The position numbers and the translations under genes were made by a program. This document shows, in pieces, positions 1 through 55,727 of a DNA stretch of 64,000 nt (positions are counted from its first letter, which is position 1; the number at the start of each line of letters is the position of its first letter). Under the pieces are notes generated by a model. It ran no database searches. It was not told the DNA's origin and was given only the letters and a program-made list of their open reading frames with translations. The DNA comes from Candidatus Saccharimonadales bacterium. GTDB taxonomy: Bacteria; Patescibacteriota; Saccharimonadia; Saccharimonadales; JBGSXW01. Where the stretch lies: positions 3,664-67,663 of the forward strand of contig JBGSXW010000005.1 of the NCBI GenBank assembly GCA_041751215.1, written 5' to 3'.

Positions 1-29
1 GGGACAACAAGCAAACCTCGTTACTATTT

Positions 30-422
30 ATGGGTATTCATGCAGTAGCATTGATCATATCAGAGGCATTTTTTAGCAAAAGTGGGCTCGATGGGTACAA
101 GTTATTCCTAGAAACATATGTAGACGGCGATGAAGATGATAAAAAATTTTCTAAAATAGCTACAACTATTCATGACTGGCGTAATATCTTAGCGCATCAA
201 TGGATAGGATCTACTGGGCATGATATAGGTTACGATTACGAAATGGATCTAGGTTGGCAAACTCGCAACGAGGTTACCTTTATAAACCCGAAAATTTATT
301 GTGAACAATACTTGTCCGTATTTCGTGCTGGCGGGAGAATGTGGAGCTATAAAGAACTTTTTTCTGAGGAACAGCTCGAAGAAATTAAATCGAGAATCAT
401 CGCCAAGTACGTAAAAAAATAA
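30..422 (+). CDS. hypothetical protein (frame stays open to the window edge, so possibly 5'-truncated)
   Basis: 130-aa ORF immediately upstream of the RM gene; no motif I recognise. Confidence 0.4.
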   Translation: MGIHAVALIISEAFFSKSGLDGYKLFLETYVDGDEDDKKFSKIATTIHDWRNILAHQWIGSTGHDIGYDYEMDLGWQTRNEVTFINPKIYCEQYLSVFRAGGRMWSYKELFSEEQLEEIKSRIIAKYVKK

Positions 423-499
423 CTATGCTGTGGGTATTTGGGTTACTTTTGTTTATAGCCTAACAACGTTAGAATATAGTTAAGGATGAGAAAAATATA

Positions 500-3400
500 A
501 TGGCAAACCTTTTTGGAAAAAACAAACTACGTGATAAAGCACTGCGATTAGACACTGAGAGCCTAGAAGACAAAATCGCAATTGTTAAAACATGGCATCA
601 CGACTACCACAACGGTAGCCTCAAAAAAGATAAGGAAACCTCTCGCGAACAAGCCTACAATTCAGACTTTTTCATCAAGATTCTCGGCTACAAAGAAAAA
701 CCATCTGTTCCATATAGCTTAGAACCAAAGGCAACCACTGAAAAAGGTCAGTTGCCTGATGCGGTCTTAGGTTTCACAGATGTTACGAAAGGCATTGTTA
801 ATATTGCCGCTGCAGTTGAGCTAAAAGGTGCATCCGTTGAACTTGACCGGCCACAACGCCGCGAGGGTAACATGAGCCCTGTCCAGCAAGGGTTCAAGTA
901 TAAGAGCCAGTATCGCAATTGTCCGTTTGTGATTGTGAGTAATTTCTGGGAGTTTCGTCTCTATCACGATAACCAACTAGACTACGAGCTTTGGACACTC
1001 GACGATCTGATTGACCCTAAAGATGACTACATTAAGTTCAAAACCTTCTACACCCTTATCCATAGCGATAATCTCACAAGTCCGAAGGGTTCTAGCAAAA
1101 CAGAGGACTTATTGAGTGATGTTCGTCTTGAGCAGGAAGAAATCGGTAGAAAATTCTATAAAGTATACGGTCAGGCACGTCATGAACTATTGCGTGATAT
1201 TTATAAGAAAAATGAGCATATAAAAACTGATATTGATACCGGCATCGAAAAGGCACAAAAAATTATTGACCGTATTGTTTTTGCTTGTTTTGCCGAAGAT
1301 CGAGGTTTACTTCCTGACGATACATTGCAGCGAGTTATTAAGGCAGCAGATACTTCTACGTTTGGCGGGTCTTTATGGTCTACCTTTAAGGCGTTCTTTG
1401 AAGCGATTGACGCAGGTAGCGAGAAACTTGATATCCCAGATGGTTACAATGGCGGCCTATTTGCACATGACTCAGTGTTAAATAGTCTCCAGATTAGCGA
1501 TGATGCTTTGCGTTCCGTCGCTAATATTAGTAACTACAATTTCGCCGAAAGCCTGAGTGTTACCATTCTTGGTCATATCTTTGAACAATCCATAAGCGAC
1601 CTAGAGGAAATAAAAAATAAGGTTAATGAAAGTCACAGTCTCAATACATTGCAGCAGTCTCGACGTAAGAAGGATGGCATATTTTATACTCCTGACTACA
1701 TAGTTCGTTACATCGTAGATAACTCACTAGGCACTTACTTGCGTGAATACGAGGAGCGATTCAAGCAAGAGTTTAGCCTCAAAGGTGATATCAACGACAA
1801 AAATTATGAGAAACGCGAGAAGCAGGCTTACAGCAAGTACCAAGAATTTCTGCAAAATGTGAAGGTTGTTGACCCTGCTTGTGGTTCTGGTGCGTTTCTT
1901 GTCTACGTGTTTGACTACTTGCTAGCGGAAAACAAGCGGGTTGCGAGCATACTTGGTAACAACCTTTTCTCGAGTGAAGACTATATAAAGTCAATTCTAC
2001 AAAACAACATTTATGGTGTTGACCTAAATGAGGAGTCAGTTGAGATTACTAAGCTTTCACTATGGCTTAAGACTGCTCAAAAAGGTAAGAAACTTACTGC
2101 TCTTGATGACAATATCAAATGCGGTAATAGCTTGATTGACGATCCTACTATAGCTGGTAGCAAAGCCTTCAATTGGCAAGAACAATTTGCGGATATTTTC
2201 AAAGATGGTGGGTTTGACATAGTTGTAGGCAACCCACCGTATGGTGTTAGTTTTAGTGCCGAAGAAAAAGCATACTTGTCCAAGTTTGATAATCTTGTGT
2301 CAGATTACGAAGCCTATATTTATTTCATATCACTTGTAAAGAAACTAGTAAAACCTGCTGGGATGCTATCCTACATATTCCCAAATACTTTCCTATCGAC
2401 ACTGTACGGTAAGAAGTACCGAGAGCAGCTTTTCTCAAATTATTCAGTTTTTGAAATGGTTGATTTATCGCGTGACCCAACATTTAGTGATGCTAGCGTT
2501 CGCACAGTAATCGTTAGCATTAAAAATTCTTCTAAAAACTATAGTTCACAGCTTAATGTCATAGACATAAGTAAAAATATTGTCTCATTTGCAAAGTATA
2601 GTAAGGATGACTTGTTGAAGAATAGTGAGAATCTACTAGTCCTCTTTACGCGGAGTGACGAAGCCAGTGCGTTAGTACAAAAAATACTAAGACAATCTAA
2701 GCCACTCAAGGACTACTTTTCAATCTCTCAGGGCTTAATACCCTACGATAAGTATCGCGGGCATGATGAGCATACGATTAAAAATCGTATCTGGCATTCT
2801 GATACTAAGAAAGATGAAACATATCGTCGAGAGCTTAAGGGCGGTGATATTACTCGATACTCACTCAACTGGAATGGTGGCTTATGGATTAGCTATGGTG
2901 ATTGGCTTGCAGCACCTCGTGAACCTAAGTTTTTTAGAGAGCCACGAATACTTGTCCGGGAAATCACCGATGATCAGCTTTACTGTGTATTTACAGATGA
3001 GGAATATTACAATACGCCATCATTAATTAATTGTGTAGGTAATAAGGGCGTTGATCAAATGTCAATCCTCGCAATTATGAATTCAAAACTCCTAGGATGG
3101 TATCATAACAACACTTCACCGAAGGCTAACAAGGGATTATTTCCAAAAATTCTCGTCAATGACGTTCGCAACCTACCAATAGTTACACCTACCAACAGTA
3201 AAGAGCTGTCCAGTAGGGCTGCAGTTATGCTGAATTTAAATAACAAGCTCGAAAGTAATTCTCAACACTTTCAAAACCTCCTATCCAGCGAATTCAAGTT
3301 AGATAAGTGGCCCACCAAACTATCAAAGTGGTGGAGACTTGAATTTACTGACCTTGTGACAGCATTAAAACTTAAGTTGTCTCTTCAGCAAAAAGATGAG

Positions 3401-3541
3401 CTGTTGCAGCTTTTTGAAAAGTATCGCCTTGAATGCTCGGAGCTTGACTTAAAAATTAATCAATTCGACCGTGAAATCGACCAGCTTGTCTACGAACTTT
3501 ATGACCTCACTAATGAAGAAACTAACCTTATAGAAAAATAA
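500..3541 (+). CDS. type IIG restriction endonuclease / N6-adenine DNA methyltransferase (MmeI-like fused enzyme)
   Basis: 1013 aa. N-terminal PD-ExK-like motif (PDAVLGF...AAAVELKG). SAM motif I VVDPACGSGAFLV. Catalytic motif IV VVGNPPYG. Long C-terminal specificity-like region. Confidence 0.85.
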   Translation: MANLFGKNKLRDKALRLDTESLEDKIAIVKTWHHDYHNGSLKKDKETSREQAYNSDFFIKILGYKEKPSVPYSLEPKATTEKGQLPDAVLGFTDVTKGIVNIAAAVELKGASVELDRPQRREGNMSPVQQGFKYKSQYRNCPFVIVSNFWEFRLYHDNQLDYELWTLDDLIDPKDDYIKFKTFYTLIHSDNLTSPKGSSKTEDLLSDVRLEQEEIGRKFYKVYGQARHELLRDIYKKNEHIKTDIDTGIEKAQKIIDRIVFACFAEDRGLLPDDTLQRVIKAADTSTFGGSLWSTFKAFFEAIDAGSEKLDIPDGYNGGLFAHDSVLNSLQISDDALRSVANISNYNFAESLSVTILGHIFEQSISDLEEIKNKVNESHSLNTLQQSRRKKDGIFYTPDYIVRYIVDNSLGTYLREYEERFKQEFSLKGDINDKNYEKREKQAYSKYQEFLQNVKVVDPACGSGAFLVYVFDYLLAENKRVASILGNNLFSSEDYIKSILQNNIYGVDLNEESVEITKLSLWLKTAQKGKKLTALDDNIKCGNSLIDDPTIAGSKAFNWQEQFADIFKDGGFDIVVGNPPYGVSFSAEEKAYLSKFDNLVSDYEAYIYFISLVKKLVKPAGMLSYIFPNTFLSTLYGKKYREQLFSNYSVFEMVDLSRDPTFSDASVRTVIVSIKNSSKNYSSQLNVIDISKNIVSFAKYSKDDLLKNSENLLVLFTRSDEASALVQKILRQSKPLKDYFSISQGLIPYDKYRGHDEHTIKNRIWHSDTKKDETYRRELKGGDITRYSLNWNGGLWISYGDWLAAPREPKFFREPRILVREITDDQLYCVFTDEEYYNTPSLINCVGNKGVDQMSILAIMNSKLLGWYHNNTSPKANKGLFPKILVNDVRNLPIVTPTNSKELSSRAAVMLNLNNKLESNSQHFQNLLSSEFKLDKWPTKLSKWWRLEFTDLVTALKLKLSLQQKDELLQLFEKYRLECSELDLKINQFDREIDQLVYELYDLTNEETNLIEK

Positions 3542-3546
3542 TAGAA

Positions 3547-4098
3547 ATGGGCAAATTAGAGATTTTAGATGTGTTATTAAGCAATATGGCTGTTTCTATC
3601 GGTAGAAACATACAGACGATTGAATCCATTGCGACAATCGCTGCTATTTGCGCTGGTCTTTGGTGGTTCTATAAAAGACGAGAAAAAGCTCCCAGGGCTA
3701 ATGTAGAACACCAAGTTAAGTTCATTGACCTAAAAAATGGAACTGTCTATGTGGGTGTTCATGTAAGCATTCAAAATACCGGCAATGTGATAATACGGCC
3801 AAAGGTCGAACAGAATCCCTCAAGCGTTGTAGTTGTTGAAGAACTTATGCCATACCTCAATAAGAAGCTTGAGTCACAGGAGCTATCGCCTGAGTATAAA
3901 ATGGGCTTTCTTGGGTCACGGACTTTTCCGCCAAAGATATGCATAGAGCCAGGAGAGAAGCAATCAATTCTATTCGAGTTTGTAATTCAGGGCAGTACTA
4001 AATCGATTAAAGTTTATTCACATATAGATAACAGCTATAATGGTGGTATAGGTTGGGACGCAACAACAATTCATGAGGTAAGATATGAGCGAGAATGA
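3547..4098 (+). CDS. hypothetical membrane protein
   Basis: 183-aa ORF 6 nt after the RM stop; one N-terminal hydrophobic helix (IATIAAICAGLWWFY). Confidence 0.5.
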   Translation: MGKLEILDVLLSNMAVSIGRNIQTIESIATIAAICAGLWWFYKRREKAPRANVEHQVKFIDLKNGTVYVGVHVSIQNTGNVIIRPKVEQNPSSVVVVEELMPYLNKKLESQELSPEYKMGFLGSRTFPPKICIEPGEKQSILFEFVIQGSTKSIKVYSHIDNSYNGGIGWDATTIHEVRYERE

Positions 4099-4288
4099 CC
4101 AGAAAAAGATAATCCAAGAGCAAGCTGAGGCAAATCAGAGAATTATTCAAGCTGTTGAGCAACAGCAAGAGGGCACATTTCAAGGTCAAGCACCTGTCAA
4201 TGAAAGAATAAAGCAAATGGGACCAAACGAGAGAATAGAAAATAAACCACAGCCTTCACCTCCAGAAGAAGACAGTAAACCAGAATAG
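4085..4288 (+). CDS. hypothetical small Q/E-rich protein
   Basis: 67-aa ORF overlapping the previous stop by 14 nt; low complexity. Confidence 0.3.
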   Translation: MSENDQKKIIQEQAEANQRIIQAVEQQQEGTFQGQAPVNERIKQMGPNERIENKPQPSPPEEDSKPE

Positions 4289-4357
4289 GTAGCTCCTAAG
4301 CACAAGAATGTGTTAGGCTAGTCCTACATGATGTAAGGGTATACTCTCCTCGCTTTA

Positions 4358-4424
4358 CTATAGCTTTTTTGCGTTTTTATAGTATAGTTAGCGCATCAAC
4401 GCATGAGTTTTGTGTGTTGGGAAC
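4358..4424 (+). promoter_or_regulatory. conserved 5' module of GC-rich cassette 1 (putative -10 TATAGT at 4383-4388, then leader GCGCATCAACGC...TTGGGAAC)
   Basis: Aligns with 5630-5698 (CTATAG..TTTTT..TATA(G/A)T..GCG(C/T)ATCAA(C/T)GC..TTGTG..GTTGGGAAC). Confidence 0.5.
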
Positions 4425-4471
4425 TTTTCGGTGATGTCAGAAGTAATTTCGACGATTAGAAAGGTGTTACG

Positions 4472-4678
4472 GTGACGAACATCGGTAGAACACATGATAT
4501 CGGGCTCGTCTACGACGGCCCCGCCAACATGCCCGCCCCTCGACCGATCGAGGCCGCGGAAAACCGCTTCCTCGACGCAGTCGCAGTCCTGATGGTGATC
4601 GCCATACCCTTTGTGATCGCCATACCCTTTGTGTTCGCCTACCGCAAGTTCCGCGAGTTGATCTTCCGCAAGTCCTAG
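4472..4678 (+). CDS. small hydrophobic protein, GC-rich cassette 1
   Basis: GTG start 5 nt after AAAGGTG; 68 aa; contains a duplicated VIAIPF segment in a predicted TM helix. Confidence 0.45.
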   Translation: MTNIGRTHDIGLVYDGPANMPAPRPIEAAENRFLDAVAVLMVIAIPFVIAIPFVFAYRKFRELIFRKS

Positions 4679-4709
4679 CAGACGGTTCGCCGTCAGAAAG
4701 GAGCGTCCA

Positions 4710-5096
4710 ATGGAGACGCTGCGCAGCAATCAGATCAAGCTGAAGCCGCTCAGAACAACGGGCGACTATGTGTTGGCCGATGAGCTTGGCAACAACTTCT
4801 TCGGCCTGGGGACGATCGAGCAGGCTCTGACCTTTCGGGGTCAGCGCTTCCTCTACCGGGGCTGCACGATCACCATCATCGAGCATGATGAGATGCCCGG
4901 TGCCGTCTTGCCGGTAGTGAGAGTCCACTCCGCCCCCTGCAAGCAGTGCCAGGCCAAGGTTTCGACCATCTGCCATCTCGAGACCTCGTGGACCCTCGTC
5001 CAGCTCAGGCTCAAATACGAGATGTGGCGCCATCGTTGCAACTACGACCGCCTGGTCGTCGACGTCCTGCCGCCCATCAACGTCAAGCCCACCTAG
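4710..5096 (+). CDS. small CxxC protein, paralog 1 (GC-rich cassette 1)
   Basis: ATG preceded by AAGGAG. Shares the pattern GQxF..G...(~25 aa)..CxxC...(8 aa)..W with ORFs 5124-5501 and 5826-6578. Confidence 0.55.
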   Translation: METLRSNQIKLKPLRTTGDYVLADELGNNFFGLGTIEQALTFRGQRFLYRGCTITIIEHDEMPGAVLPVVRVHSAPCKQCQAKVSTICHLETSWTLVQLRLKYEMWRHRCNYDRLVVDVLPPINVKPT

Positions 5097-5123
5097 GTCA
5101 CCTACCACAAGCGAGGCGGTTCA

Positions 5124-5501
5124 ATGCCAAGCAACATCCAACTCCAACCCATCCGCAATCGAAGGGACCGGCGTCGAGCAGCTCAGTACGGCAATTCCCT
5201 GTTCGGGCTCGGTCTCCTTCCGGAAGAAGGCCTCACAAGCGGACAGAAGTTCACCTTCTGCGGCTATCTGATCCAGTACTTCGATGGTCGATTGGTTTCG
5301 CCGTCGAGAGATGGTCAATCCAACTTCTACCGAAGCAAGGTCACGTGCTTCTGCCCGTGCTGTGGCGAGGAGATGAGCGAACTGTTCAACTTCGACACCG
5401 AATGGACCGAGGTTCATCAGCACATGTGCGGAGAGCGTGACGCCCACCAGTGTGACGCGCCCGAGCTGGCTGTACCGGATGCGAACTTCGCTTCCGTCTG
5501 A
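5124..5501 (+). CDS. small CxxC/zinc-ribbon-like protein, paralog 2 (GC-rich cassette 1)
   Basis: SD-like GAGGCGG upstream; motifs SGQKFTFCGY, CPCCGEEM, TEW, and a second Cys pair MCGERDAHQC. Confidence 0.55.
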   Translation: MPSNIQLQPIRNRRDRRRAAQYGNSLFGLGLLPEEGLTSGQKFTFCGYLIQYFDGRLVSPSRDGQSNFYRSKVTCFCPCCGEEMSELFNFDTEWTEVHQHMCGERDAHQCDAPELAVPDANFASV

Positions 5502-5558
5502 CATCATCCACCGTGCGCCGGCAGGAACCACTCTTTCCCAAGAGACTCCTGCCGGCGC
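5499..5558 (+). repeat. conserved 3' module of cassette 1 (TGA-CATCATCCACC + 40-nt nested hairpin CGGCAGGAACCACTCTTTCCCAAGAGACTCCTGCCGGCGC)
   Basis: The 40-nt core 5519-5558 is identical to 6599-6638. Confidence 0.8.
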
Positions 5559-5575
5559 CATCAACTTTGTTTAAG

Positions 5576-5597
5576 CCCTCAGATTGAGGGATTTTTT
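5576..5597 (+). terminator. intrinsic terminator candidate
   Basis: CCCTC-AGATT-GAGGG followed by ATTTTTT. Confidence 0.5.
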
Positions 5598-5629
5598 ATG
5601 CTCAAAATCAACAAAAGCACTACCGTAAA

Positions 5630-5698
5630 GCTATAGACTTTTTACTGTTAATCTTGTATAATCTGCGTATCAATGCGTCTTGTGACGGGTTGGGAACG
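5630..5698 (+). promoter_or_regulatory. conserved 5' module of GC-rich cassette 2 (extended -10 TGTATAAT at 5655-5662, then leader GCGTATCAATGCG...TTGGGAAC)
   Basis: Homologous to 4358-4424. Confidence 0.5.
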
Positions 5699-5825
5699 TT
5701 AAGATGATGGTCAATTCCCCTAAGTTTAATTCGAGTACTCGAATGTGGCTTTGAGGTTGCACTAAACATAGGCAGCTTCTGAGCCATATTCGAGCAACAC
5801 TCGTGACAACAAGGGAGATAACAAC

Positions 5826-6578
5826 ATGTTCAAGTTCATCAGCAAGCTGTTCAAGAAGAAGTCGGAGGAATCGGCCTACAAGATCTGGGGTCGCCACGAG
5901 CTGCCGCTCCCCAAGGGCCCAAACAGCACCTGGACGGACCGCCTGATCGGTCAGGAGTTCGTGATCGACGGCTACAACTTCGTGATCGTCGGGGAATCGA
6001 ACGCCCACGAGGGGATCTCGGCCCGTCTCGAACTTCCGTGCAAATCCTGTGGCCAGCCACATCGCTTGTGGCTCAGCGTCACCGCGACCTGGGATGATGT
6101 GCTGATGACGATCTTGAGCTTCGCCGAGAAGAGCTGCGACGACTGCAACCAGGTGCTCAACGGTGATATCGACCGCGTCGAAGAGGAGATGGCGAAGAAC
6201 GTCGAGGAGTGGAAAGGCATCGAGAAAGCTCTCGTGGCTTCCGGCCTCGACCTCGATTCCCTCGACCTCTTGGTCAACGACTCCGGCGAAGTCGACTGCG
6301 TCAGCCAGTTCCTCTGGCTCAAGTCTGGCTGGGTACCGCTCTGGCTGTACAGCCGTCGTGGTTTCCCAAGGGATCTGAGCAAGATAAACGAGCTCAAGCA
6401 CATGCTCGGCGTCAACGCCCACATCGAGGGAAACCTGATCTGCTTCTCGCCGATCCATGTGATGCGACCCAGTCGGATCGAAGAGTTCAACGAAGAGCTG
6501 GCAGAACTCCGCAAGCACCAGAACACCATGGAAGCCCACCGCCTCGCCCGCGCGTCGCGCAACACGAGCTCCATCTGA
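5826..6578 (+). CDS. CxxC/zinc-ribbon-like protein, paralog 3 with a C-terminal extension (GC-rich cassette 2)
   Basis: ATG preceded by AGGGAG; motifs IGQEFVIDGY, CKSCGQ, TATW, CDDC; 250 aa. Confidence 0.55.
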   Translation: MFKFISKLFKKKSEESAYKIWGRHELPLPKGPNSTWTDRLIGQEFVIDGYNFVIVGESNAHEGISARLELPCKSCGQPHRLWLSVTATWDDVLMTILSFAEKSCDDCNQVLNGDIDRVEEEMAKNVEEWKGIEKALVASGLDLDSLDLLVNDSGEVDCVSQFLWLKSGWVPLWLYSRRGFPRDLSKINELKHMLGVNAHIEGNLICFSPIHVMRPSRIEEFNEELAELRKHQNTMEAHRLARASRNTSSI

Positions 6579-6638
6579 CCATCATCCACCCCTTGCGTCG
6601 GCAGGAACCACTCTTTCCCAAGAGACTCCTGCCGGCGC
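6576..6638 (+). repeat. conserved 3' module of cassette 2
   Basis: TGACCATCATCCACC plus the same 40-nt hairpin as 5519-5558, followed by a T-run. Confidence 0.8.
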
Positions 6639-6664
6639 ATTTTTCTTTTCATCGCCCTTTTCCA

Positions 6665-6854
6665 CGCATCAGCTAAAACTCCTGAATTTGGGAGGGAGAA
6701 ACCCGGCGTAGCGAGGACTGTCCGCCAGCCGGCGGACGGGTTCCGCAGCCGCCCGAGTCCTTGGGTGAGCCAAGCTCATGAGAGTTTTTACAGCAGCGGG
6801 AAAGTTTTGAGCCACTTTTTAAAAAGTGGCGACCACCCCCGTCGTGGAAACGAC
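6665..6854 (-). repeat. element A, copy 1 (subfamily A1)
   Basis: Near-identical over long stretches to 47225-47395, and reverse-complement homologous to 19134-19311 and 55449-55636. Contains the palindrome GCCACTTTTTAAAAAGTGGC (6811-6830). Confidence 0.8.
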
Positions 6855-6879
6855 AAGCAAATTTAAGTTCTTAAAACGC

Positions 6880-7296
6880 CTAGCTAGCTAAGAGCCCAAA
6901 AACCAGGCCCATCATCGCATAACTTGTAACCACAAACAGCGCGTCAATAACTAGTAGTTTCTTGCGTCGCTTACCGAAGCCGTACATGGTAACTAGCGTT
7001 GTAACGGCGATACCCGAGCCGATAAAGGCTGCGTCAAACATCCCGTCAACCACTCCTTTAACGCCAATTAGTACTAACCCCAGAACTGTTGCACTAACAA
7101 ACGCCATCACCACCATTACGGCCATCATGGTCATGTTGGTTGACTCTAAGTCCTTCTTTTTTAAGCCAGAGGCTTTCATCCACTCGTTGCCGGCTACTGC
7201 TGGGCTATACCAAAGCATTCCCCAAAGAATGCTAACTACAGCTGCCACGACAACAGCCGACCAATTTAGGTTTTCTAGTGCTAATGAGAAGTCCAT
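6880..7296 (-). CDS. DUF1761-like membrane protein
   Basis: 138 aa, four hydrophobic helices; N-terminus NWSAVVVAAVVSILWGMLWYSP..W is paralogous to ORF 32005-32421. Confidence 0.55.
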   Translation of the reverse strand: MDFSLALENLNWSAVVVAAVVSILWGMLWYSPAVAGNEWMKASGLKKKDLESTNMTMMAVMVVMAFVSATVLGLVLIGVKGVVDGMFDAAFIGSGIAVTTLVTMYGFGKRRKKLLVIDALFVVTSYAMMGLVFGLLAS

Positions 7297-7465
7297 AGCT
7301 CCCCTCCTTTGTAATTACTTAAGCTTATTCTAACACTGGCGCAATTAAACCCCAATTGACTCTGTGGTTGCTTGTGCTATAACTGAACAGTTCGCTTTAG
7401 GGGTGAACGAGGTGTACCAGAGGCCTCAGAAGCAAATACTCTGGTAGTACGTTGAGGAGGAAATC

Positions 7466-7816
7466 TTGGGCGTCATAACGGGTAACCGGGTTGGCCGCGA
7501 GGAACGAACTGCAAGTAGTGCTCGGCGAATCGATGAGGGCATGCTACCTGACGGACACGCCGTGGTGCTGATCCTGGGCAGTACGACCTACATCTGCTCA
7601 CACTGCCGCTACGCAGTCGTCATCGGTGAGTACACCCACAAAACGTCACCGGCCGGTACAGACCTGCTCGCTTTCAAAGACGAAGCTGGTGAGCACGACG
7701 AGCGGATCTGCGGCAAGCATTTCACCATGTACGACGATCGCCGCGACCAGGCCAAGCGCGCGCCGCTACCACAGTGGTTCGACCGCCTCGGATCAGTGAT
7801 CTACGACGAAGACTGA
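7466..7816 (+). CDS. hypothetical GC-rich Cys-containing protein
   Basis: TTG start 5 nt after GAGGAGG; CSHC...CGKH motifs; GC-richer than the flanks. Confidence 0.45.
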   Translation: MGVITGNRVGREERTASSARRIDEGMLPDGHAVVLILGSTTYICSHCRYAVVIGEYTHKTSPAGTDLLAFKDEAGEHDERICGKHFTMYDDRRDQAKRAPLPQWFDRLGSVIYDED

Positions 7817-7906
7817 CGGCTTTGGGTCGGGTGCGAGCGTAAGCTCACAAAGCACCCGGCCCTAGCCAGTCAATCCGAATCTCCTCCTCAACTTTTTTTC
7901 TTGAAT

Positions 7907-9004
7907 TTAGAGCTGTATATAGTCTTTAACAGATGACTTTGCTAGTTCGCTAAGTAGATATTCATCCAAGTTAAAGTAGTTAAACTGGATGTGAGCAACG
8001 GTAATTTTATCGCCTTTTCTGCCCAGGTGCTTAACGATGTGTAAGCCGTACGGAACTTCGATTATCTCGGAGGCTTGACCCTGAGTTAAGTTAAATGCGG
8101 CCTCTATAAACGCAGCTGGATAGGCAGTGTCACTTCTGGCAATATCTCCAACCACCCCGTCTTTGGCCCGCGAAATTTGGTTATCAGAGAACTCTTTGGC
8201 TAGATCGCCAAAGTCTGCACCACTTTTAACCCGAGCTAACACCGTCTCGGCCTGTTCTCTGGTAGCTGTATCGAGCATTGGCAGCAGCTTTTGGCGAATG
8301 ATTTGCTGCTTAATAACTTTGCGTAGATCTGATTCATTCCAACCATAATAATTACTTAGAACCTGATTCAAACCAGTCTCGCCGCTCTCTTGAGTAGCAC
8401 CAGCTTGGATTTTAATTGGATCAATAGCAGCGCTAATCTCCTCTGAAGAAACCGTGATTCCTCGCTCGCGAGCTAACTGATTAGTGAGAGCCTGAAGTTT
8501 TACCTTTTGATAGGCCTGCCGTTTGCTCTCAGCTACGAGCACTTGGCCTTCTTTTGAGTCGATGTCGACTCCCTCTTGAGGGTGTGTTCGGTAGTAATGT
8601 AACAGATGTCGAATCTCAAAAAGGTAGTCTTCATAGGCTACAAAATTACCATTGATGCGCGCCACCGGAAACGGCACGATCTGGCTAATTCGGTAGGCGA
8701 AGTCGTTGGTGCTTTTAAAGCGATAGAGCATCAGGCCCGAAGCCACAAACAACATGGCAACTACGCCAATAATTAGGGCGCTCGATATAATAACAACTCG
8801 GTGTTTTGAGTGCTGCAGAGGATAAATAAAGCGCCGCGCAGCCCCCAGAACTTCTTCACGAACTTCTTCAACAGTCTGACTAGTAACTCGGTCTTGATTG
8901 GGCGCTGGTTCTTCGTTAAGACTTAACTTGTCTTTAACCGCAGTCTTTACCCCATCAATACTTGGTTTCTTAGCCCCACCACTCTTTTTACGTCTCAATT
9001 TCAT
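7907..9004 (-). CDS. membrane-anchored parvulin-type peptidyl-prolyl isomerase (PrsA/SurA-like)
   Basis: N-terminal TM helix; C-terminal PpiC-type block (VKSGADFGDLAKEFSDN...GLHIVKHLG). Confidence 0.7.
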   Translation of the reverse strand: MKLRRKKSGGAKKPSIDGVKTAVKDKLSLNEEPAPNQDRVTSQTVEEVREEVLGAARRFIYPLQHSKHRVVIISSALIIGVVAMLFVASGLMLYRFKSTNDFAYRISQIVPFPVARINGNFVAYEDYLFEIRHLLHYYRTHPQEGVDIDSKEGQVLVAESKRQAYQKVKLQALTNQLARERGITVSSEEISAAIDPIKIQAGATQESGETGLNQVLSNYYGWNESDLRKVIKQQIIRQKLLPMLDTATREQAETVLARVKSGADFGDLAKEFSDNQISRAKDGVVGDIARSDTAYPAAFIEAAFNLTQGQASEIIEVPYGLHIVKHLGRKGDKITVAHIQFNYFNLDEYLLSELAKSSVKDYIQL

Positions 9005-9065
9005 GTCGCCCCATTGTACCAGATTTAACAGGCATTAGCCTTAAAGAGAAGTTTCTCAAAAAGGC

Positions 9066-9620
9066 CTAGTTTTTAGGCGCCTTGAGGGCTTGCTCGGCAA
9101 AGTTTCCAACACCCAGCTCTTTAAGAGTCTTCACTAGTTTTTCTTGCATCCGATCAGGATGATGTACAAAATCGATCACCAAGTCTCCCACAAAAGTCTG
9201 AACCAAAACTGTGCCGTAGCCTAAGACCGTCTCTTGAAACCCCGATATCTGATAGTTGATGTTCTGGATCTTATCTAAACCAACGTCGACTACGGTTTTA
9301 TCCCATAGCCCCTTTTGCGTAATGCTTATTAGGCGCTGGTCGGTCATGATGATGTAAGTAAAATGCCAGTCGATCCAAGACCAAAACATAAAAACCAAAC
9401 CGACCAGCAGACCAAGTAACACAAACCACAAAAATTCTAAACGGGTTGGCCAGATCAGAGAAGGAATCATGCCGATCAGCAGACAAATTAGCACCAAGAT
9501 CAGCCCTTTGCGCATAACTAAAGGATGCTTATGAAAAGTCATTAACACTTCTTCGTCTGCGTGTTGACCGTCGAACTCAGGCTTAAAATCGTCTTTAGCT
9601 TTGCTAGCCTTTTTAAACAT
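9066..9620 (-). CDS. bacterial PH-domain (YdbS/YdbT-like) membrane protein
   Basis: Two TM helices followed by a ~90-aa beta-rich domain, the typical bPH_2 architecture. Confidence 0.5.
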   Translation of the reverse strand: MFKKASKAKDDFKPEFDGQHADEEVLMTFHKHPLVMRKGLILVLICLLIGMIPSLIWPTRLEFLWFVLLGLLVGLVFMFWSWIDWHFTYIIMTDQRLISITQKGLWDKTVVDVGLDKIQNINYQISGFQETVLGYGTVLVQTFVGDLVIDFVHHPDRMQEKLVKTLKELGVGNFAEQALKAPKN

Positions 9621-9641
9621 GAGTTCTATTATAGCGGATTA

Positions 9642-9807
9642 TGGCGTCCCGGGAGGGATTGACCTGACGGTCCGTTTCCTCACGTGCTCTCCGCCTAAGG
9701 CGGATGTGCGCGTTCGTCACGAACGAACCCGCCGCTACGCGGCACGGGGTTCTCATCATTTTCGAAAAGCCAAACGTTACAGTCCACCTACGGTGAACCG
9801 CAGCGTT
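9642..9807 (+). repeat. 147-nt GC-rich insert related to element A, plus a 19-nt duplicate of the tRNA-Arg 3' end
   Basis: TGGCGTCCCGGGAGGGATT occurs at 9642-9660 and again at 9808-9826 (inside the tRNA). The interior has GAGAACCCC..CGTAGCG..TCCGCC-TTAG-GCGGA, resembling the A1 core. Confidence 0.6.
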
Positions 9808-9884
9808 TGGCGTCCCGGGAGGGATTCGAACCCCCGACGCCCGCCTTAGGACGGCGGCGCTCTATCCAGCTGAGCTACCGAGAC
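9808..9884 (-). tRNA. tRNA-Arg (anticodon CCT), CCA encoded
   Basis: Hand-folded cloverleaf. Acceptor GTCTCGG/CCGGGAC. D-arm GCTCAGCTGGATAGAGC. Anticodon arm CCGCC-GTCCTAA-GGCGG. T-arm GGGGGTTCGAATCCCTC. Confidence 0.85.
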
Positions 9885-9903
9885 ACACTACAGTTAGTAT
9901 GCC

Positions 9904-11022
9904 TCAACTCTGTTGCTCCGCCAACTGCTCACCCTGATTAGATCCATCGGGCTCAACAATTACCAAGTGGCACCGTCCGTAGGCTTGAGTCCAACGCGTA
10001 GTAAAGTCCGGCTTACCATACTCCATCTCTCCCCTGTGTTTGGGGTCGTGGACATTAATGTGCCGCCCAGTAGCATCAAGTAAGATGTTATTGTGCCAAA
10101 CTCCTCCCGCTCGGGCTCCAAGGCCATTCGACACTAAAGACAGGACGCAGTAAATTCTAGCTTCGGGAATTCTTTCTTTAATTTTTTCGGTAATCTTATC
10201 GACAAAGCCAATGTCCGCTCCAAACATACTTAAAGTTTGAACTTCTATGCCGGTTTTTCTTCGTATGGCGTCAGATTGAAGCATTTTTAGATATGTCTCA
10301 TCTTCCATCAACCCCGTTCCATGGACGTTACTTAAGCCATCATAAAGGCCTTGGTAGGCGTCCTCGCTGATTAAGTCCTGTACTACCATGGCAAAAGCAC
10401 TTAAGGCGCAGTCCTGGTGTGCGCGCTGCTTTATAAACGGAGGTACTGTGAGTCGCCCCGCTGGCAGCTCTTGCTTGGCTGTTTCTTCGTAGCGCATAAA
10501 GGCTAAGTCTCTAAGAGCACTCAACTTGGCTTCTCGGATTTCGTAAATCTGCACGTAGTGATCCTTGCGGTCTTTAAATATCTGATTCATCGCCAGTCTT
10601 GCGCTTGGCGATCGGTATTCATCTGGCATTATGTACTCCGGCGTATAGGACGGGTCGAGTTCGAGGAGTCGGTCGCTAGTTTCCTCAAGAACGGCGGTTA
10701 TGTCAGCTGCCATCGGGCCAGCTAGAGTTCGAGGTGCTGGCTGGACGTGCTTGGCCTCAAAGAAAGCTTCAGTAAAAACCTTTGCCCACACTTGACGTGG
10801 TGTTCTCTCGGGCAGGTTAGCGGGAATAATCTCGCCGTTCTCATCGTGTGTAACCCGCAGCGTTACACCCACCGATGCCAGTAGATCTAGCTGCGCTTGC
10901 GAAACATCGGCATCGCCAAGTGATGGATCTATCTCCTCTAGTGTCTCGATTGGAGCCAGTTCACCTTCAATAACATCCGCTACTTCCCACCCTGAGTCTT
11001 CTCCAGGGAGAACTGACGACAT
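9904..11022 (-). CDS. hypothetical protein with a possible C-terminal papain/C39-like cysteine peptidase domain
   Basis: 372 aa; HQDCALSAFAMV (Q..C nucleophile-like) and a later VWHNNILLD..H..HD block; weak motif-level call. Confidence 0.35.
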   Translation of the reverse strand: MSSVLPGEDSGWEVADVIEGELAPIETLEEIDPSLGDADVSQAQLDLLASVGVTLRVTHDENGEIIPANLPERTPRQVWAKVFTEAFFEAKHVQPAPRTLAGPMAADITAVLEETSDRLLELDPSYTPEYIMPDEYRSPSARLAMNQIFKDRKDHYVQIYEIREAKLSALRDLAFMRYEETAKQELPAGRLTVPPFIKQRAHQDCALSAFAMVVQDLISEDAYQGLYDGLSNVHGTGLMEDETYLKMLQSDAIRRKTGIEVQTLSMFGADIGFVDKITEKIKERIPEARIYCVLSLVSNGLGARAGGVWHNNILLDATGRHINVHDPKHRGEMEYGKPDFTTRWTQAYGRCHLVIVEPDGSNQGEQLAEQQS

Positions 11023-11027
11023 AGCGA

Positions 11028-11492
11028 CTACTTGCGTTCGTAGGTCTCGTAAATGTGGATGTATTCAGACTTGTCGTACGAAAACAGCTCGTCCTTGCCA
11101 AAGAATCGGCTAACTTCTGACTGTCCGCTACTCTTGCTGTCTGAGGCGTGAATTAGATTGCGTCCGGTTCCGATAGAAAAGTCGCCGCGGATTGTGCCAG
11201 CATCGGCTTCGCGCGGATTGGTAGCACCAACTAAAACTCGTACCGAGTTGACGCACTCAAATCCCTCAACCGCCATAACAACTACTGGCGAGCTCTGCAT
11301 AAACTTAGCTAGATCTTCGTAAAAAGGCTTCTCTAGGTGCTCTGAATAGTGCTGAGAAAGCAGTTCGCTATCAAGGCTGAGCATCTTCATGCCGATTAAC
11401 TTAAGGCCCTTGCGCTCTAGTCTGGAGAGAATTTCTCCGACCAATCCACGCTGCACGGCATCTGGTTTAGCAATAATTAAAGTTCGTTCCAT
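11028..11492 (-). CDS. ndk: nucleoside diphosphate kinase
   Basis: ERTLIIAKPDAVQRGLVGEI...NLIHASDS active-site His context. Confidence 0.9.
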   Translation of the reverse strand: MERTLIIAKPDAVQRGLVGEILSRLERKGLKLIGMKMLSLDSELLSQHYSEHLEKPFYEDLAKFMQSSPVVVMAVEGFECVNSVRVLVGATNPREADAGTIRGDFSIGTGRNLIHASDSKSSGQSEVSRFFGKDELFSYDKSEYIHIYETYERK

Positions 11493-11510
11493 TTTAAATC
11501 CTGTTCGATC

Positions 11511-12314
11511 TTAGATATTTATCAGTAGTAATAGTACCAAAGCTAGAGCGATTCGGTAATACCCAAAGATCGCCAGACCATGTGACTTCAAATATTTAAG
11601 CAACCAATGGACCACACCAAGCCCCACAATTGCCGCCGTTAAGATGCCGACCACTGTAAGTGCTAGGTCATCTGTGACTGCTGCGCGGGCTTCATCATCG
11701 AGCAGTGTCTGAACCGAAGCTCCAAATATTACCGGCACGCCAATTAAAAACGAGTACTCCGCCGCATTTCTATTATCTAGACCCTGGCTGCGACCAGCTA
11801 AGATAGTAATTCCTGATCTGGAAGTTCCCGGAATTAACGCTGCAGCCTGAGCTACACCAACTATCAGGGCAGTTTTCTTTGAGATCTGAGAAAGCTTTAT
11901 TTCTTTTCCCTTTTTTTGCGGAAATTTGGGCGGAAAAAGCCGATCCGAAGCAATAAAGAGCAGACCAACTAGCACTAACATGACAATCACCACCTCAACG
12001 TGGCGCACATCCTCGCTAAAAAAGTCGTTAAACAAAAATCCGACAACCGCAGCTGGAATTGTTGAGATCACTAGCAGTGTAAACAGCTTATAGTCACGCC
12101 CGCTCAGCACATTTTTAGCTATTTCAAAGAGTTTAGGCCAAAAGTAGATTACTAAGGCCAGGAGCGTTCCGACGTGGAGCATAACGTCAATTGCCAGTGA
12201 ACTATCAATACCGGCAACTTCATCTAGCGCCAAGAGATGTCCGGAGCTAGAAACCGGCAAGAACTCGGTTAGCGCCTGAGTTACGGCTAGAATTAATATC
12301 TCAATTAAAATCAT
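11511..12314 (-). CDS. uppP: undecaprenyl-diphosphate phosphatase
   Basis: BacA motifs LPVSSSGHL and PGTSRSG; polytopic. Confidence 0.9.
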   Translation of the reverse strand: MILIEILILAVTQALTEFLPVSSSGHLLALDEVAGIDSSLAIDVMLHVGTLLALVIYFWPKLFEIAKNVLSGRDYKLFTLLVISTIPAAVVGFLFNDFFSEDVRHVEVVIVMLVLVGLLFIASDRLFPPKFPQKKGKEIKLSQISKKTALIVGVAQAAALIPGTSRSGITILAGRSQGLDNRNAAEYSFLIGVPVIFGASVQTLLDDEARAAVTDDLALTVVGILTAAIVGLGVVHWLLKYLKSHGLAIFGYYRIALALVLLLLINI

Positions 12315-12987
12315 TGCTGTTATTGTAACTCATCTAGCCCTTACTGCTGGAGCTAATTTCGCGTCCGTTTCCTTTGTTGAGCACAGTGTAATGCTCCCCA
12401 GTTGCTGGTATTTTTATGGTGACTACAAAAATTATACAGCCTAGTTGCGTCGTCAAACCGACTTGAAACGGCAAAAATATCGCGCGAGATTTACAATATT
12501 TCGTTGTTTATTCGTCAGCTAAAAGCGTGCAGTCTAATCTGTTCTTTGATCGCATCCGCTCTTACGGATTTAAAGGCACAATCTAACGTGCCGCCGTTTT
12601 TAGTACAAATTCCGTTGTTTTTTTATCTATGCCCTAAACAGGAATTTTGTTATGTTATGTTTTTACTCGAGTAGCCATGGTCTATTCATTCATTCTAAAG
12701 CCAGGTGCTGCCATGACTGAAACCACGCAAGGTGCTCGGACAATGTTTTTGTTGTAAATGCTATTGGTGTTTTTACAACAGGTAAGTCCCCCTGAGTGAC
12801 ATTTAGTGCTCCGAGTCAGCTCCGCTGGTTTAGATCTTAGCCCTCTTGAATTTTCTTGGCCGACCTAACGACAACACTGCCAACGTCAGAATTAGGCCAC
12901 CACATTAATTAACATGGCGGCGAAACTAAAGCTGAGTACTAGCATTACCTTTTTGGTATTGTGCGACACTAAGCGTAATATTGATTT

Positions 12988-13902
12988 ATGAACTTAAGTA
13001 ACGTTATCGTCGACTTTTTAGAGCATTTAGAAATCGAGCAAAATCGCTCGCAAATGACAATTGCCAATTACCACCACTACCTTATGCGTTTAGTTGAGTT
13101 TAGTGACGATGTTGATATAAGCAAGCTAGACGCCGAAGTAATACGTCGATGGCGCCTTTGGCTCAATCGATACAAAGATGCTCACGGGACGGAACTATCT
13201 AAGACTACTCAGAACTACCACTTAATTGCGCTGCGCAGTTTGCTTCGCTACTGCATGAAAAGAGATATCAAAACCCTCAGCCCAGATAAGATTGAGTTAG
13301 CCAAAGTCAGCCGAAAACAGGTTACATTCCTAAGTATCGAAGAAGTTGAACGACTGCTAGACCAGCCTGATCTTAGTAAGCTAACAGGGATGCGAGACCG
13401 TGCAATTTTAGAACTACTCTTCTGCGGGGGCCTCCGAGTGTCAGAACTTGTTAACCTAAATATCGATCACATTAACCTAAAACGATTAGAGTTTACGGTC
13501 CGCGGAAAAGGCCAAAAAGACCGCCCGATCTTTATTAGTGAACAAGCCGGTGAAGCAATTGGACGCTATCTTCAGGCCCGTCAAGATAACTTTCGACCCC
13601 TGTTTATCCACGCTGGCGGAACGCAAAGTGCGTTAGACGAAGGCGAATACACAAGGTTGAGTACAAGGAGTGTTCAAAGACTAGTTAGTCGCTACGCTAA
13701 GCTTGCTGGAATTACGAAAAAAGTCAGCCCACATACTTTGCGTCACTCGTTTGCCACCGACCTATTGATGAACGGGGCCGACCTGCGCAGCGTGCAGTCT
13801 TTGCTGGGACACAGCAATATTGGCACCACCCAGATTTACACTCACATTACCGACCCTCACCTGCGCGACGTGCACAAGAAATTCCATGGTAAAAGCCGAT
13901 AG
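12988..13902 (+). CDS. tyrosine site-specific recombinase XerC/XerD family
   Basis: C-terminal HTLRHSFATDLL..GADLRSVQSLLGHSNIGTTQIYTH. Confidence 0.85.
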   Translation: MNLSNVIVDFLEHLEIEQNRSQMTIANYHHYLMRLVEFSDDVDISKLDAEVIRRWRLWLNRYKDAHGTELSKTTQNYHLIALRSLLRYCMKRDIKTLSPDKIELAKVSRKQVTFLSIEEVERLLDQPDLSKLTGMRDRAILELLFCGGLRVSELVNLNIDHINLKRLEFTVRGKGQKDRPIFISEQAGEAIGRYLQARQDNFRPLFIHAGGTQSALDEGEYTRLSTRSVQRLVSRYAKLAGITKKVSPHTLRHSFATDLLMNGADLRSVQSLLGHSNIGTTQIYTHITDPHLRDVHKKFHGKSR

Positions 13903-19133: not shown

Positions 19134-19311
19134 GTCGCTTGCCAGCGACGTGGCATTGCCACTTTTTAAAAAGTGGCTCAAAACTACCCCGCTGCTACTA
19201 AAACACTCATGAACTTGTTTCGCACAGAACTTGGGTTACTGCGGAGTACGTATGAACAGTCCTCGTCACGCCATGTTCTGTCCTTACAAGTTCAGAGATT
19301 TTAGTAGATGC
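19134..19311 (+). repeat. element A, copy 3 (subfamily A2)
   Basis: Hairpin GTCGCT-TGCC-AGCGAC; palindrome 19158-19177; closing helix CTACTAAAA../..TTTTAGTAG; core GCGGAGTACG..ACAGTCCTCGTCACGCC. Confidence 0.8.
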
Positions 19312-19350
19312 GGGTTTATCCGAACATCTGACCCTATTTTCAGGGATGAA

Positions 19351-47173: not shown

Positions 47174-47224
47174 ATTCCTGCTTTCGCAGGAATGACCTGC
47201 CTAGCGGCAGGCAGGCTGGAGCCG

Positions 47225-47395
47225 CGCATCAGCTAAAACTCCTGAATTTGTGAGGGAGAAACCCGGCGTAGCGAGGACTGTCCGCCAGTTGGCGGACGGA
47301 CTCCGCAGCTACCCGAGTTTTGACTGAGCAAATTCAAGGATTGTTTTAGCTGCAGCGTGAAAGGTTTTGGGGCACCTTTTTTAAAAAGGTGTCGT
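47225..47395 (-). repeat. element A, copy 2 (subfamily A1)
   Basis: CGCATCAGCTAAAACTCCTGAATTTG.GAGGGAGAAACCCGGCGTAGCGAGGACTGTCCGCCAG..GGCGGACGG matches 6665-6740 almost base for base; palindrome at 47371-47393. Confidence 0.85.
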
Positions 47396-55345: not shown

Positions 55346-55448
55346 GTAGTTAATCTTTTTTGTTTTTTGCAATAAGCTATCAGGGGTAGAGTAGCATAAC
55401 CACATTGCTAGGTCAACCGGGACGCATTACAGAGCAAGGATCTGCATT

Positions 55449-55636
55449 GTCGCTCCCGCGACGGGGCAATGCCACTTTTTATAAAGTGGCGTTGGAACTC
55501 TCCCGCTAACTACCAAAACAAAACTCATTAGTCTATGGGGCCAAAGAACTCGGGCAACTTGCGGAGTCCGTCTGAACAGTCCTCGTTGCGCCGGGTCTTT
55601 GGCCGCACAGCCTTAAAGAGGTTTTGGTAGAGACGG
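55449..55636 (+). repeat. element A, copy 4 (subfamily A2)
   Basis: Hairpin GTCGC-TCCC-GCGAC; palindrome GCCACTTTTTATAAAGTGGC (55471-55490); helix CTACCAAAAC../..GTTTTGGTAG; core GCGGAGTCCGTCTGAACAGTCCTCGTTGCGCC. Confidence 0.8.
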
Positions 55637-55727
55637 AAAGTTACAGGAAGGGCTTTACATCTCACCTCTGTTAGTGTATATTCATCCCCTGAAACTAAAT
55701 TAAGTACGGGTTTCGTACTTAGGTGTA

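Follow-up and report, generated by a model that had tools for sequence, protein, structure and literature searches.

In the genome of a Candidatus Saccharimonadales bacterium (assembly GCA_041751215.1), the tRNA-Arg(CCT) gene is followed by a short non-coding insert and then by a second, exact copy of the last 19 nucleotides (nt) of the tRNA. The locus lies in a 64,000-nt stretch of contig JBGSXW010000005.1 (positions 3,664 to 67,663), which is referred to here in its full length as the window. The insert belongs to a family of structured sequences found behind tRNA genes in related Saccharimonadia genomes, and we consider it, at roughly an even chance, to be a miniature, protein-less insertion element of the T-loop class, whose structured module is maintained, probably as a predicted trailer RNA co-transcribed with the tRNA.

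The intact tRNA-Arg(CCT) gene, with its CCA encoded, occupies 9808..9884 of the minus strand (ARAGORN; Rfam tRNA model, 56.3 bits). On the plus strand the repeat reads TGGCGTCCCGGGAGGGATT and occurs exactly in two places only, at 9642-9660 and 9808-9826. No third site is present in the window with up to 3 mismatches allowed, the chance expectation is 0.01, and 0 of 100 shuffles held two matches, so that the duplication reported in the initial annotation is confirmed as exact and far above chance. Read on the minus strand (AATCCCTCCCGGGACGCCA), the repeat consists of the last three T-loop bases, the 3′ strand of the T-stem, the 3′ strand of the acceptor stem, the discriminator G and CCA, and its proximal copy (9808..9826, minus strand, exact match) corresponds to tRNA positions 58-76. 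The 147-nt spacer (9661-9807) had been described as GC-rich and was measured at 59% G+C versus 47-50% in its surroundings. The junction of module, repeat and downstream bPH gene is identical in an independent Logan assembly from another run (L169, SRR28170463), which excludes an assembly artefact.

Three observations mark the repeat as the signature of an insertion, namely empty sites in relatives, the spacing of the distal copy from a -10 box, and recurrence of the duplication at about 27 tRNA genes. The downstream host gene encodes a bPH-domain membrane protein (9066..9633 of the minus strand, with the coding region at 9066-9620, ATG at 9618-9620 and TATAAT at 9628-9633) and provides the synteny anchor. 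Homologues of the protein are from Candidatus Saccharimonadales, and about 165 related loci (given L numbers below) were collected through its alignment, including 80 loci from species-representative genomes and 80 from metagenomes. The conserved gene order is Xer recombinase, NDK, tRNA-Arg(CCT), bPH and PPIase, with NDK present in 118 loci, PPIase in 158 and Xer in 98 (62-70% identity), and the distance from the end of NDK to the tRNA is 0-150 nt in most loci. The uninterrupted tRNA-Arg locus that the initial annotation proposed to look for in relatives is indeed the common state: most of the about 130 tRNA-Arg loci are empty, the tRNA ending 14-90 nt before the bPH start in the layout CCA, 10-30 nt, TACAAT/TATAAT, ATG, and site occupancy is only about 10%. 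In the window, the distal repeat is followed by TAATCCGC, TATAAT (9633-9628) and the bPH ATG (9620), at 8 nt from TATAAT and 21 nt from the ATG. Here, as in L020 and L029, the spacing of the distal repeat from the -10 box equals that of the tRNA end in empty sites. The predicted empty junction at the window locus would join the tRNA straight to TAATCCGCTATAAT. No strict filled/empty pair for the window locus was found: in its closest relatives, L001 (85% bPH identity) and L087/L088 (69-70%), the neighbour differs or the tRNA is inverted or absent.

A second copy of the own 3′ end was searched for at 132 Arg-CCT, 80 Asp-GTC, 35 Thr-CGT and 30 Gly-CCC tRNAs. With exact 14-mers, recurrence was seen for 12 Arg genes, 5 Asp genes and 2 Thr genes, and a 17-nt search with up to 3 mismatches gave 14 Arg, 9 Asp, 2 Thr and 0 Gly; overall, about 27 tRNA-Arg(CCT), Asp(GTC) and Thr(CGT) genes have a duplicated 3′ end. 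All second copies lie downstream on the same strand, except for two 3-mismatch matches, opposite-strand or distant, which are at chance level. The repeats are spaced about 80 nt apart in 5 cases and 160-185 nt in 15, with outliers at 127, 137, 625, 669 and 2427 nt. Across all sites, the identity block starts at tRNA position 52-62, usually ends exactly at CCA and measures 16-25 nt. Seventeen repeats are exact and the rest carry 1-3 mismatches (CCA to CTA or TCA) or are truncated; the repeat states thus form a spectrum from fresh to decayed.

Read on the minus strand, from the tRNA outward to the bPH gene, the insert begins with hairpin H0 (9770..9810; sequence and fold), whose 5′ strand starts at the CCA (CCAAACG...CGTTTGG) and whose tail has 4 Ts only. 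H0 resembles the tRNA terminators of the phylum and is not called by a canonical-terminator scan; the same design also follows tRNAs and distal repeats in L072, L100, L026 and L024. A small palindrome, TTTTCGAAAA (9759..9768), stands at the place of hairpin H1 in other family members, as judged from sequence and comparison. Next comes the non-coding module X of type 1 (9661..9758), delimited by the fold and by two covariance models, R1 and R2, described below, which comprises GAUGAG, H2, a junction, P3a closing H3, a further junction and H4. Helix H2 (GAACCC..GGGUUC, 9725..9752; fold and R2) has an inner hairpin, GCCGC-GUA-GCGGC, and its pairing across the family is 94%; the string GAGAACCCC..GCGTAGCG quoted in the initial annotation is present inside it. 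An extra hairpin, CGUUCG-UGA-CGAACG (9711-9725; fold and sequence), follows H2. Placed by the model alignment, helix P3a (9683..9712; CGCGC/GCACG, with a central C.A mismatch) leads through a 3x2 internal loop (ACA/GA) to hairpin H3, UCCGCC-UUA-GGCGGA (9690-9704), which is the other quoted motif (TCCGCC-TTA-GGCGGA) at the same coordinates. Hairpin H4 (GGACC-GUCA-GGUC, 9661..9673; fold and sequence) stands immediately ahead of the distal repeat copy (9642..9660, minus strand, exact match). The 166-nt block as a whole is more stable than shuffles (fold z -3.6; range -3.3 to -3.6). The H3 stem (UCCGCC/GGCGGA, 9690-9704) has the same sequence as the anticodon stem of the neighbouring tRNA (CCGCC/GGCGG, 9845-9860), and in the minimum-energy fold of the 243-nt transcript the 5′ strands of the tRNA pair with the distal repeat and H3. 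This is unseen in other family members and may be coincidence.

Known types of sequence do not account for the insert. The tRNA alone passes the gathering threshold of Rfam and nothing else reaches E<1 in 9560-9960, so that known RNA families, including group I intron, tmRNA, hammerhead, Y RNA-like, 6S and SRP, were rejected. Examination of open reading frames (ORFs) gave no gene in the 147-nt spacer. Small proteins (MRT... ORFs starting from the conserved ATGAGAAC) were considered and rejected, because the H2 loops of L020 and L155 are 8 nt apart in length, so that the conserved blocks do not stay in one frame. A hammerhead-like reading of GAUGAG plus helix fails, as no GAA follows the helix, C3/U4 are unconserved and Rfam gave no match. 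Patescibacterial tRNA group I introns lie at position 35/36, outside the T-loop (PMC13011429), and such an intron was rejected on position as well as on the lack of a model match. A miniature inverted-repeat transposable element was likewise discarded, since AACGCTGCGG... and ...CCGTCAGGTC, the two ends of the insert, do not form inverted repeats and the duplication is 19 bp versus 2-10 bp. A simple scan detected no promoter or terminator of canonical type from the tRNA to the bPH gene, which makes co-transcription plausible.

The inserts share a common architecture of a CCA hairpin, a small hairpin, GA(A/G)CC-loop-GGUUCG, two hairpins, ..AU and the repeat. Type-1 blocks, (G)AUGAGAAC-loop-GUUCGGCG.ACGAGRAGCRCA-[hairpin]-GAGCAYCGCAGGRAGGA-[hairpin]-G.GAU|AU, are common to the tRNA-Asp insert of L155 and the tRNA-Arg inserts of L020, L029 and L051. 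R1, a covariance model built from four copies, was used to find further copies and, run unfiltered over the whole window, gave its best match at 9642-9758 (16.5 bits, E 0.005). R2 was built from ten copies in other genomes with the window excluded. It matched the window insert at 9642-9758 with 36.2 bits (E 2.5e-9) over model positions 1-129 of 129, the next-best match in the window being 11 bits, and this full-length match identifies the insert as a divergent but genuine type-1 member. In 0.88 Mb of related loci R2 found 17 copies, all directly behind tRNA-Arg(CCT) or tRNA-Asp(GTC) or with cargo between tRNA and copy; other insert types stand behind Arg and Thr tRNA genes. The sequences could not be filed under anything previously described, as judged from the lack of an Rfam match and of a description in the literature searched.

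The variable hairpins could not be aligned by MAFFT alone and a model-based alignment was used. In the model-fitted alignments, which are biased towards the structure of the model, 85-87% of cells are paired versus 30-39% with slid partners, compensatory changes occur in 20-25 of 29 pairs, and 0 of 500 shuffles match the observed values. Helix P3a covaries (GAAGC/GCAUC, GGAGC/GCACC, CGCGC/GCACG), and H3 and H4 keep their positions with wholly different sequences between copies. In many copies the segment 5′ of H2 is complementary, over 7-12 bp, to the junction and the first half of the repeat (Fisher combined p 2e-7); Arg and Asp copies have different pairing partners. Truncated repeats (L032, L018, L035) keep the paired 5′ half and have lost CCA. 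A strand test of G.U versus A.C gave 11 vs 6. The idea that the 3′ strand of H2 tracks the T-stem of the resident tRNA was dropped, being true in L072 and not in L106.

Conservation of the insert was compared with third codon positions of the bPH gene. Between L020 and L029, identity is 100% in the tRNA, 97% in H0, 91% in the module, 100% in the repeat and 75% at bPH third positions; hairpin, module and repeat together are 93% identical, and the excess over bPH third positions has p 7e-4 for the module and 2e-6 for the whole block. A type-3 short insert occurs at tRNA-Arg in L047, L067, L151 and L166 and at tRNA-Thr in L006, and it is 91-95% identical although the bPH third positions of the hosts are saturated at 46%. 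This identity reflects either strong constraint or recent transfer, and passive decay is excluded either way. Together, the conserved blocks, the covarying helices and the above-neutral conservation indicate a maintained structured element rather than a decaying scar. The earlier view of tRNA-end repeats as an integration scar therefore holds as far as the signature of insertion is concerned and fails as a mere scar, the insert being a member of a conserved structured family.

Which copy of the repeat is original can be read from a pair of loci with near-identical flanks. In L104, one tRNA-Arg allele stands directly ahead of the bPH promoter, and in L013 there is a different tRNA-Arg allele, 127 nt, the last 22 nt of the L104 allele and the same promoter. 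From L104 to L013, the first ~54 nt of the resident tRNA-Arg have been replaced by a complete tRNA-Arg of the other allele plus 127 nt. The distal fragment of L013 is thus a relic of the resident gene and the functional tRNA is the incoming one, which is direct evidence for whole-tRNA cassette exchange at the tRNA-Arg site. In L046 and L007, distal fragments also come from a foreign-looking tRNA allele. In the window, the distal copy holds the position of the tRNA end in empty sites, so that, by analogy with L104/L013, where displacement is demonstrated, it would be the former 3′ end of the tRNA, moved away by the insert.

Copies also occur in tandem and with cargo. L100 (5824-6300) has tRNA-Asp, hairpin-module-repeat, then hairpin-module-interrupted repeat and a terminator, the second repeat being split by a 37-nt hairpin insert. 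In L106 (3296-5800), 2.2 kb of cargo with NUDIX-like and unknown genes, and without integrase, lies between the tRNA and an older unit of degenerate remnant, hairpin, module and exact repeat. L163 (6813-7099) shows a tRNA-Asp-type copy (6813-6937) that likewise consists of a degenerate remnant, hairpin, module and exact repeat, the tRNA and any cargo being beyond the end of the locus. L014 had been a candidate empty-site partner of L047. With a tRNA-Arg identical to that of L047/L166, it retains the first 8 nt (GGTTTCAC) of the type-3 insert and has lost the rest of it, the repeat and 9 nt of flank; the leftover 8 nt point to imprecise deletion rather than a clean empty site or excision through the repeats, and the pairing was rejected.

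The mechanism that we favour would start with a 166-bp insertion at the T-loop sublocation of tRNA-Arg(CCT), of which the two 19-nt copies would be the end marks. The incoming DNA would have regenerated the tRNA 3′ end and displaced the original end to the distal copy. Placement would be by site-specific recombination of the T-loop class supplied in trans, given that the insert encodes no protein, and later spread among strains may have proceeded by recombination through tRNA homology. Transcription would run from the tRNA into the insert and give a structured trailer RNA, with the first half of the repeat within the fold.

A candidate mover was sought in the window, at the occupied sites and in viral collections. 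The initial annotation had suggested searching for an integrase or a larger island with the same core, and the window has none. Its sole tyrosine recombinase is of the Xer type (12988-13902, plus strand; XerD/XerC/XerA-like, under equivalog cut-offs). The gene lies ~1 kb from tRNA-Arg(CCT) and is kept in 98 related loci with occupied or empty site alike, and was rejected as the mover on that ground; it is probably the housekeeping dif recombinase. Its constant closeness to a recombination hotspot is nevertheless worth noting. No cognate autonomous element was detected in 0.94 Mb of related loci or by exact-pattern scans of IMG/VR. In IMG/VR the 19-mer matched tRNA-Trp genes of jumbo phages only, the Asp module/repeat junction and the module core had no match, and BLAST of 9000-12500 against a phage collection returned tRNA-like matches only.

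Several results count against a miniature insertion element. No integrase, transposase or reverse transcriptase occurs in or beside any occupied site, cargo versions included, and no free or viral form appeared in the IMG/VR scans, which are insensitive. The helix closing the 5′ end of the module on the repeat is absent from the window copy, and the pair counts carry the model bias mentioned above. Exact repeats at three tRNA species and many alleles are awkward for a 3′ end carried by the element, the identity block runs past CCA by about 7 nt in L151, about 37 nt in L072 and 3 nt in L006, and in L013 the entire tRNA is foreign, beyond the 3′ end alone. The missing recombinase, the exact repeats, the flank past CCA and the whole-tRNA swap in L013 keep models of target duplication and of a functional tail alive. 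In a true target-site duplication, an enzyme that recognises the T-arm palindrome would cut the strands around the tRNA 3′ end with a stagger of 16-28 bp and insert hairpin plus module as one unit, and both copies would be target-derived; a casposase or Cas1-like integrase, another transposase or target-primed reverse transcription would be the candidates. Exact repeats at Arg, Asp and Thr genes and many alleles beside a homologous module would suit such an enzyme (L155 at Asp and L020 at Arg have about 40 nt of conserved blocks in common), as would the shifting of the duplicated window (52-76, 58-76, 62-83, and 59-76 plus 37 nt) and the type-3 insert, 91-95% identical with each repeat matching its own tRNA allele, and the A. 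boonei casposase at tRNA-Pro is a precedent (PMC5137440). We nonetheless rate target duplication as rather improbable: the right boundary is usually exactly CCA, the length is variable, the window copy is without terminal inverted repeats, Cas1, transposase and reverse transcriptase were seen in no locus, and the distal fragments of another allele in L013, L046 and L007 imply that the proximal copies are not target-derived.

The module might instead be a resident, tRNA-linked small RNA whose 3′ end mimics the T-stem/acceptor 3′ strand and CCA of the tRNA, for processing, as a decoy or as a tag, with identity to the tRNA kept by selection or conversion and patchiness due to loss. Purifying selection on hairpin, module and repeat agrees with this, and so do the four covarying helices with conserved junction blocks, the pairing of the 5′ segment with the repeat in many copies with a partner that changes by tRNA species, the tandem-gene-like units of module, repeat and terminator in L100, and the truncated repeats that retain their paired 5′ half. 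Pairing, however, leaves identity at the unpaired bases (58-60, discriminator, CCA) unexplained, the loss or mutation of CCA (L155 CTA, L163 TCA, truncations) implies that a tRNA-like end is not essential, no promoter was found, and the window copy misses the closing helix. Occupancy of about 10% beside clean empty sites, and the cargo insertions and allele replacement that show a recombinationally active site, also speak against residence, and we regard it as unlikely. A neutral scar, in which the repeats would be the att sites of a once larger island or prophage with 147 nt left over after deletion of its interior, could appeal to direct tRNA-3′-end repeats as the classic end marks of islands (PMC4383910), to decayed repeats elsewhere (1-3 mismatches, truncation) and to the existence of integrase-free cargo islands. 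It is largely refuted by R2, since sequence and structure make the 147 nt a homologue of inserts from unrelated genomes and from a second tRNA species, and the clustering of spacings at 160-185 nt, the conservation above the neutral rate, and a fold better than shuffles at 59% G+C leave it very little probability. Hardly credible is a local accident, be it replication slippage, tandem duplication, chance similarity or mis-assembly. The duplicated unit of L072 (tRNA end plus terminator) does look like a local tandem duplication, but for the window chance is excluded, an independent assembly agrees, and the spacer is a member of a family in other genomes that is not derived from neighbouring sequence.

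A more speculative proposal, to which we give a minor share of belief, is a retargetable, tRNA-tagged RNA element, with a functional tail rather than a scar, which would represent a new class of non-coding mobile RNA gene in ultra-small bacteria. Under this proposal, a conserved scaffold of ~110 nt would always end in the last ~18 nt of the preceding tRNA, whichever that is, beside the universal T-loop TTCGA, and many copies have a 5′ segment complementary to this tail. The tail could serve as a homing address or guide, could prime reverse transcription or tag its start, or could mimic a minihelix for RNase P/CCA processing. The identity block starts at position 58/59, at which tRNA brings reverse transcriptases to a halt.

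The initial annotation had likened the insert to element A, a rod-like structured repeat of ~140 nt with four copies in the window, at 6652-6801 and 47213-47360 on the plus strand and at 19187-19343 and 55503-55651 on the minus strand (together A1-A4). Smith-Waterman alignment against A1-A4 gave at best 17/18 with a 4-nt gap (p about 0.09), R1 and R2 match none of A1-A4, and an nhmmer profile of A1-A4 matches the four A copies only and not the insert, so that the likeness did not survive. The element A core is GGCG..ACGAGGACUGU[optional hairpin]ACGGACUCCGCAG, with fold z from -3.3 to -6.6. Behind every copy stand a bidirectional terminator (GCCACTTTTTAAAAAGTGGC-like) and a hairpin, small and covarying. 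A1 has no Rfam match, and the absence of the A profile from about 165 related loci indicates that the element is lineage-specific. A second boundary-like string had also been reported beside A4 and was located as AGGTCAACCGGGACGC at 55410-55425 (plus strand), between the A4 terminator and the promoter that serves the following minus-strand gene. It looks like the junction of module end and repeat (9644-9665) minus TCCCTC, and the pattern AGGTCAA-N(0-8)-CCGGGACGC, chosen after the fact, occurs twice in the window and not once in 100 shuffles. Neither R1 nor R2 detected a module beside AGGTCAACCGGGACGC. The site may be a decayed second junction. The suggestion that element A uses the tRNA end was not upheld, the sole link being this one degenerate 16-nt string on the strand opposite to A4.

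Further features of the window bear on gene gain around the locus. An orphan ORF of 372 aa (9904..11022, minus strand) lies between NDK and the tRNA, at a position where more than 100 relatives have 0-150 nt, and is a second lineage-specific insertion at the tRNA-Arg of the window. It has no homologues in 5.8 billion proteins or in the related loci, and just a weak C39-peptidase-like motif (QDCALSAF..H..D). It may, with some uncertainty, be part of the same incoming block as the tRNA and module; as a mobilising enzyme it was set aside, since without homologues no association can be drawn. The tRNA-Arg(CCT) gene stands between NDK and bPH in either orientation by lineage (L087 1491-1566, L008, L011, L025, L027, L039), flanked by tens of nucleotides on each side, and in L087, the closest informative relative of the window, it is inverted. 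These observations indicate that a single tRNA gene has repeatedly been inverted in place or exchanged like a cassette. Elsewhere, a block of about 4000-8000 at 50-57% G+C adjoins the 39% G+C region 1-4000. Within it, two 48-nt terminator-like copies (5511-5558 and 6591-6638; 96% identical) bracket ORF 5826-6578, which encodes 250 aa without a Pfam match. This looks like a gene cassette inserted together with a duplicated end of the preceding gene and its terminator.

The genomes of Saccharibacteria, of roughly 1 Mb, contain very little non-coding DNA, and few mobile elements have been recognised in them. Against this background, a protein-less element of ~110 nt that repeatedly lodges at the 3′ ends of two or more tRNA species, regenerates the tRNA, stacks and gathers cargo, and is conserved above the neutral rate, may be either the smallest known kind of tRNA-targeting integrative element or a new RNA, linked to tRNA, that has its own function. 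The occupied sites are hotspots of gene entry in genomes of the candidate phyla radiation, as exemplified by the orphan ORF and by the cargo of L106, L021 and L069, and programs that find islands or annotate tRNAs can be misled by the duplicated ends.

Among known systems, the guide RNAs of TnpB, known as reRNAs, offer a resemblance only. They consist of a scaffold of ~130-150 nt and a flank-derived guide of 16-20 nt, and tRNA-like 3′ tags are read by RNase P and reverse transcriptases. The family described here similarly has a scaffold plus ~18 variable nt beside a target motif (T-loop TTCGA), and its RNA would end in NCCA; it differs in having no nuclease or reverse transcriptase gene and in the decayed or truncated repeats of several copies, and the window copy has no sign of a transposon end next to it. 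A palindrome-associated element of the IS200/IS605 type or a TnpB guide RNA, for which insertion 3′ of a 4-5-nt motif and no duplication would be expected, was rejected for the window, which has a 19-nt duplication there and no TnpB/TnpA ORF. Casposons are closer in target choice, since the A. boonei casposase recognises the T-psi-C-loop region of tRNA-Pro and produces a 15-bp duplication overlapping the tRNA end (PMC5137440). Shared with them are the T-psi-C-arm palindrome as positioning element, a long duplication over the tRNA 3′ end and the possibility of directional, repeated insertion. Casposon features unseen here are the fixed 15 bp lying mostly downstream (5-bp overlap), the large size, terminal inverted repeats and Cas1/PolB, and insertion of this type was rejected because the duplication varies over 16-28 nt and the loci examined have no terminal inverted repeats and no Cas1-solo or PolB.

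Cis-mobilisable elements (CIMEs), such as those related to ICESt of Streptococcus thermophilus, are att-flanked remnants that can be mobilised in trans. Like them, the inserts have attL/attR-like flanks and no recombination genes and would need an outside recombinase; unlike them, they are about ten-fold smaller and conserved in sequence and structure across distant hosts, which a deletion remnant would not be. The nearest parallel in layout is with class II tyrosine-integrase islands (Ms6, Islander-type). The class II core of Ms6 has 26 bases, from the T-stem to the tRNA 3′ end (PMC1762012), and the identity block here likewise runs from the T-arm to the 3′ end over 16-25 nt. Both have a regenerated intact tRNA and a displaced 3′ fragment in direct orientation, as well as tandem accretion, same-site cargo and empty sites in relatives (PMC4383910). 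The inserts differ from these islands in being gene-free, with 147 nt in the window and an integrase at none of ~27 occupied sites, in some duplications that extend beyond CCA, in a module family that is found at two tRNA species, and in a conserved, covarying four-helix module where those islands have arm-type protein sites. Mobile DNA that inserts into tRNA genes is already known, and the insert family would be a miniature, recombinase-less version of it.

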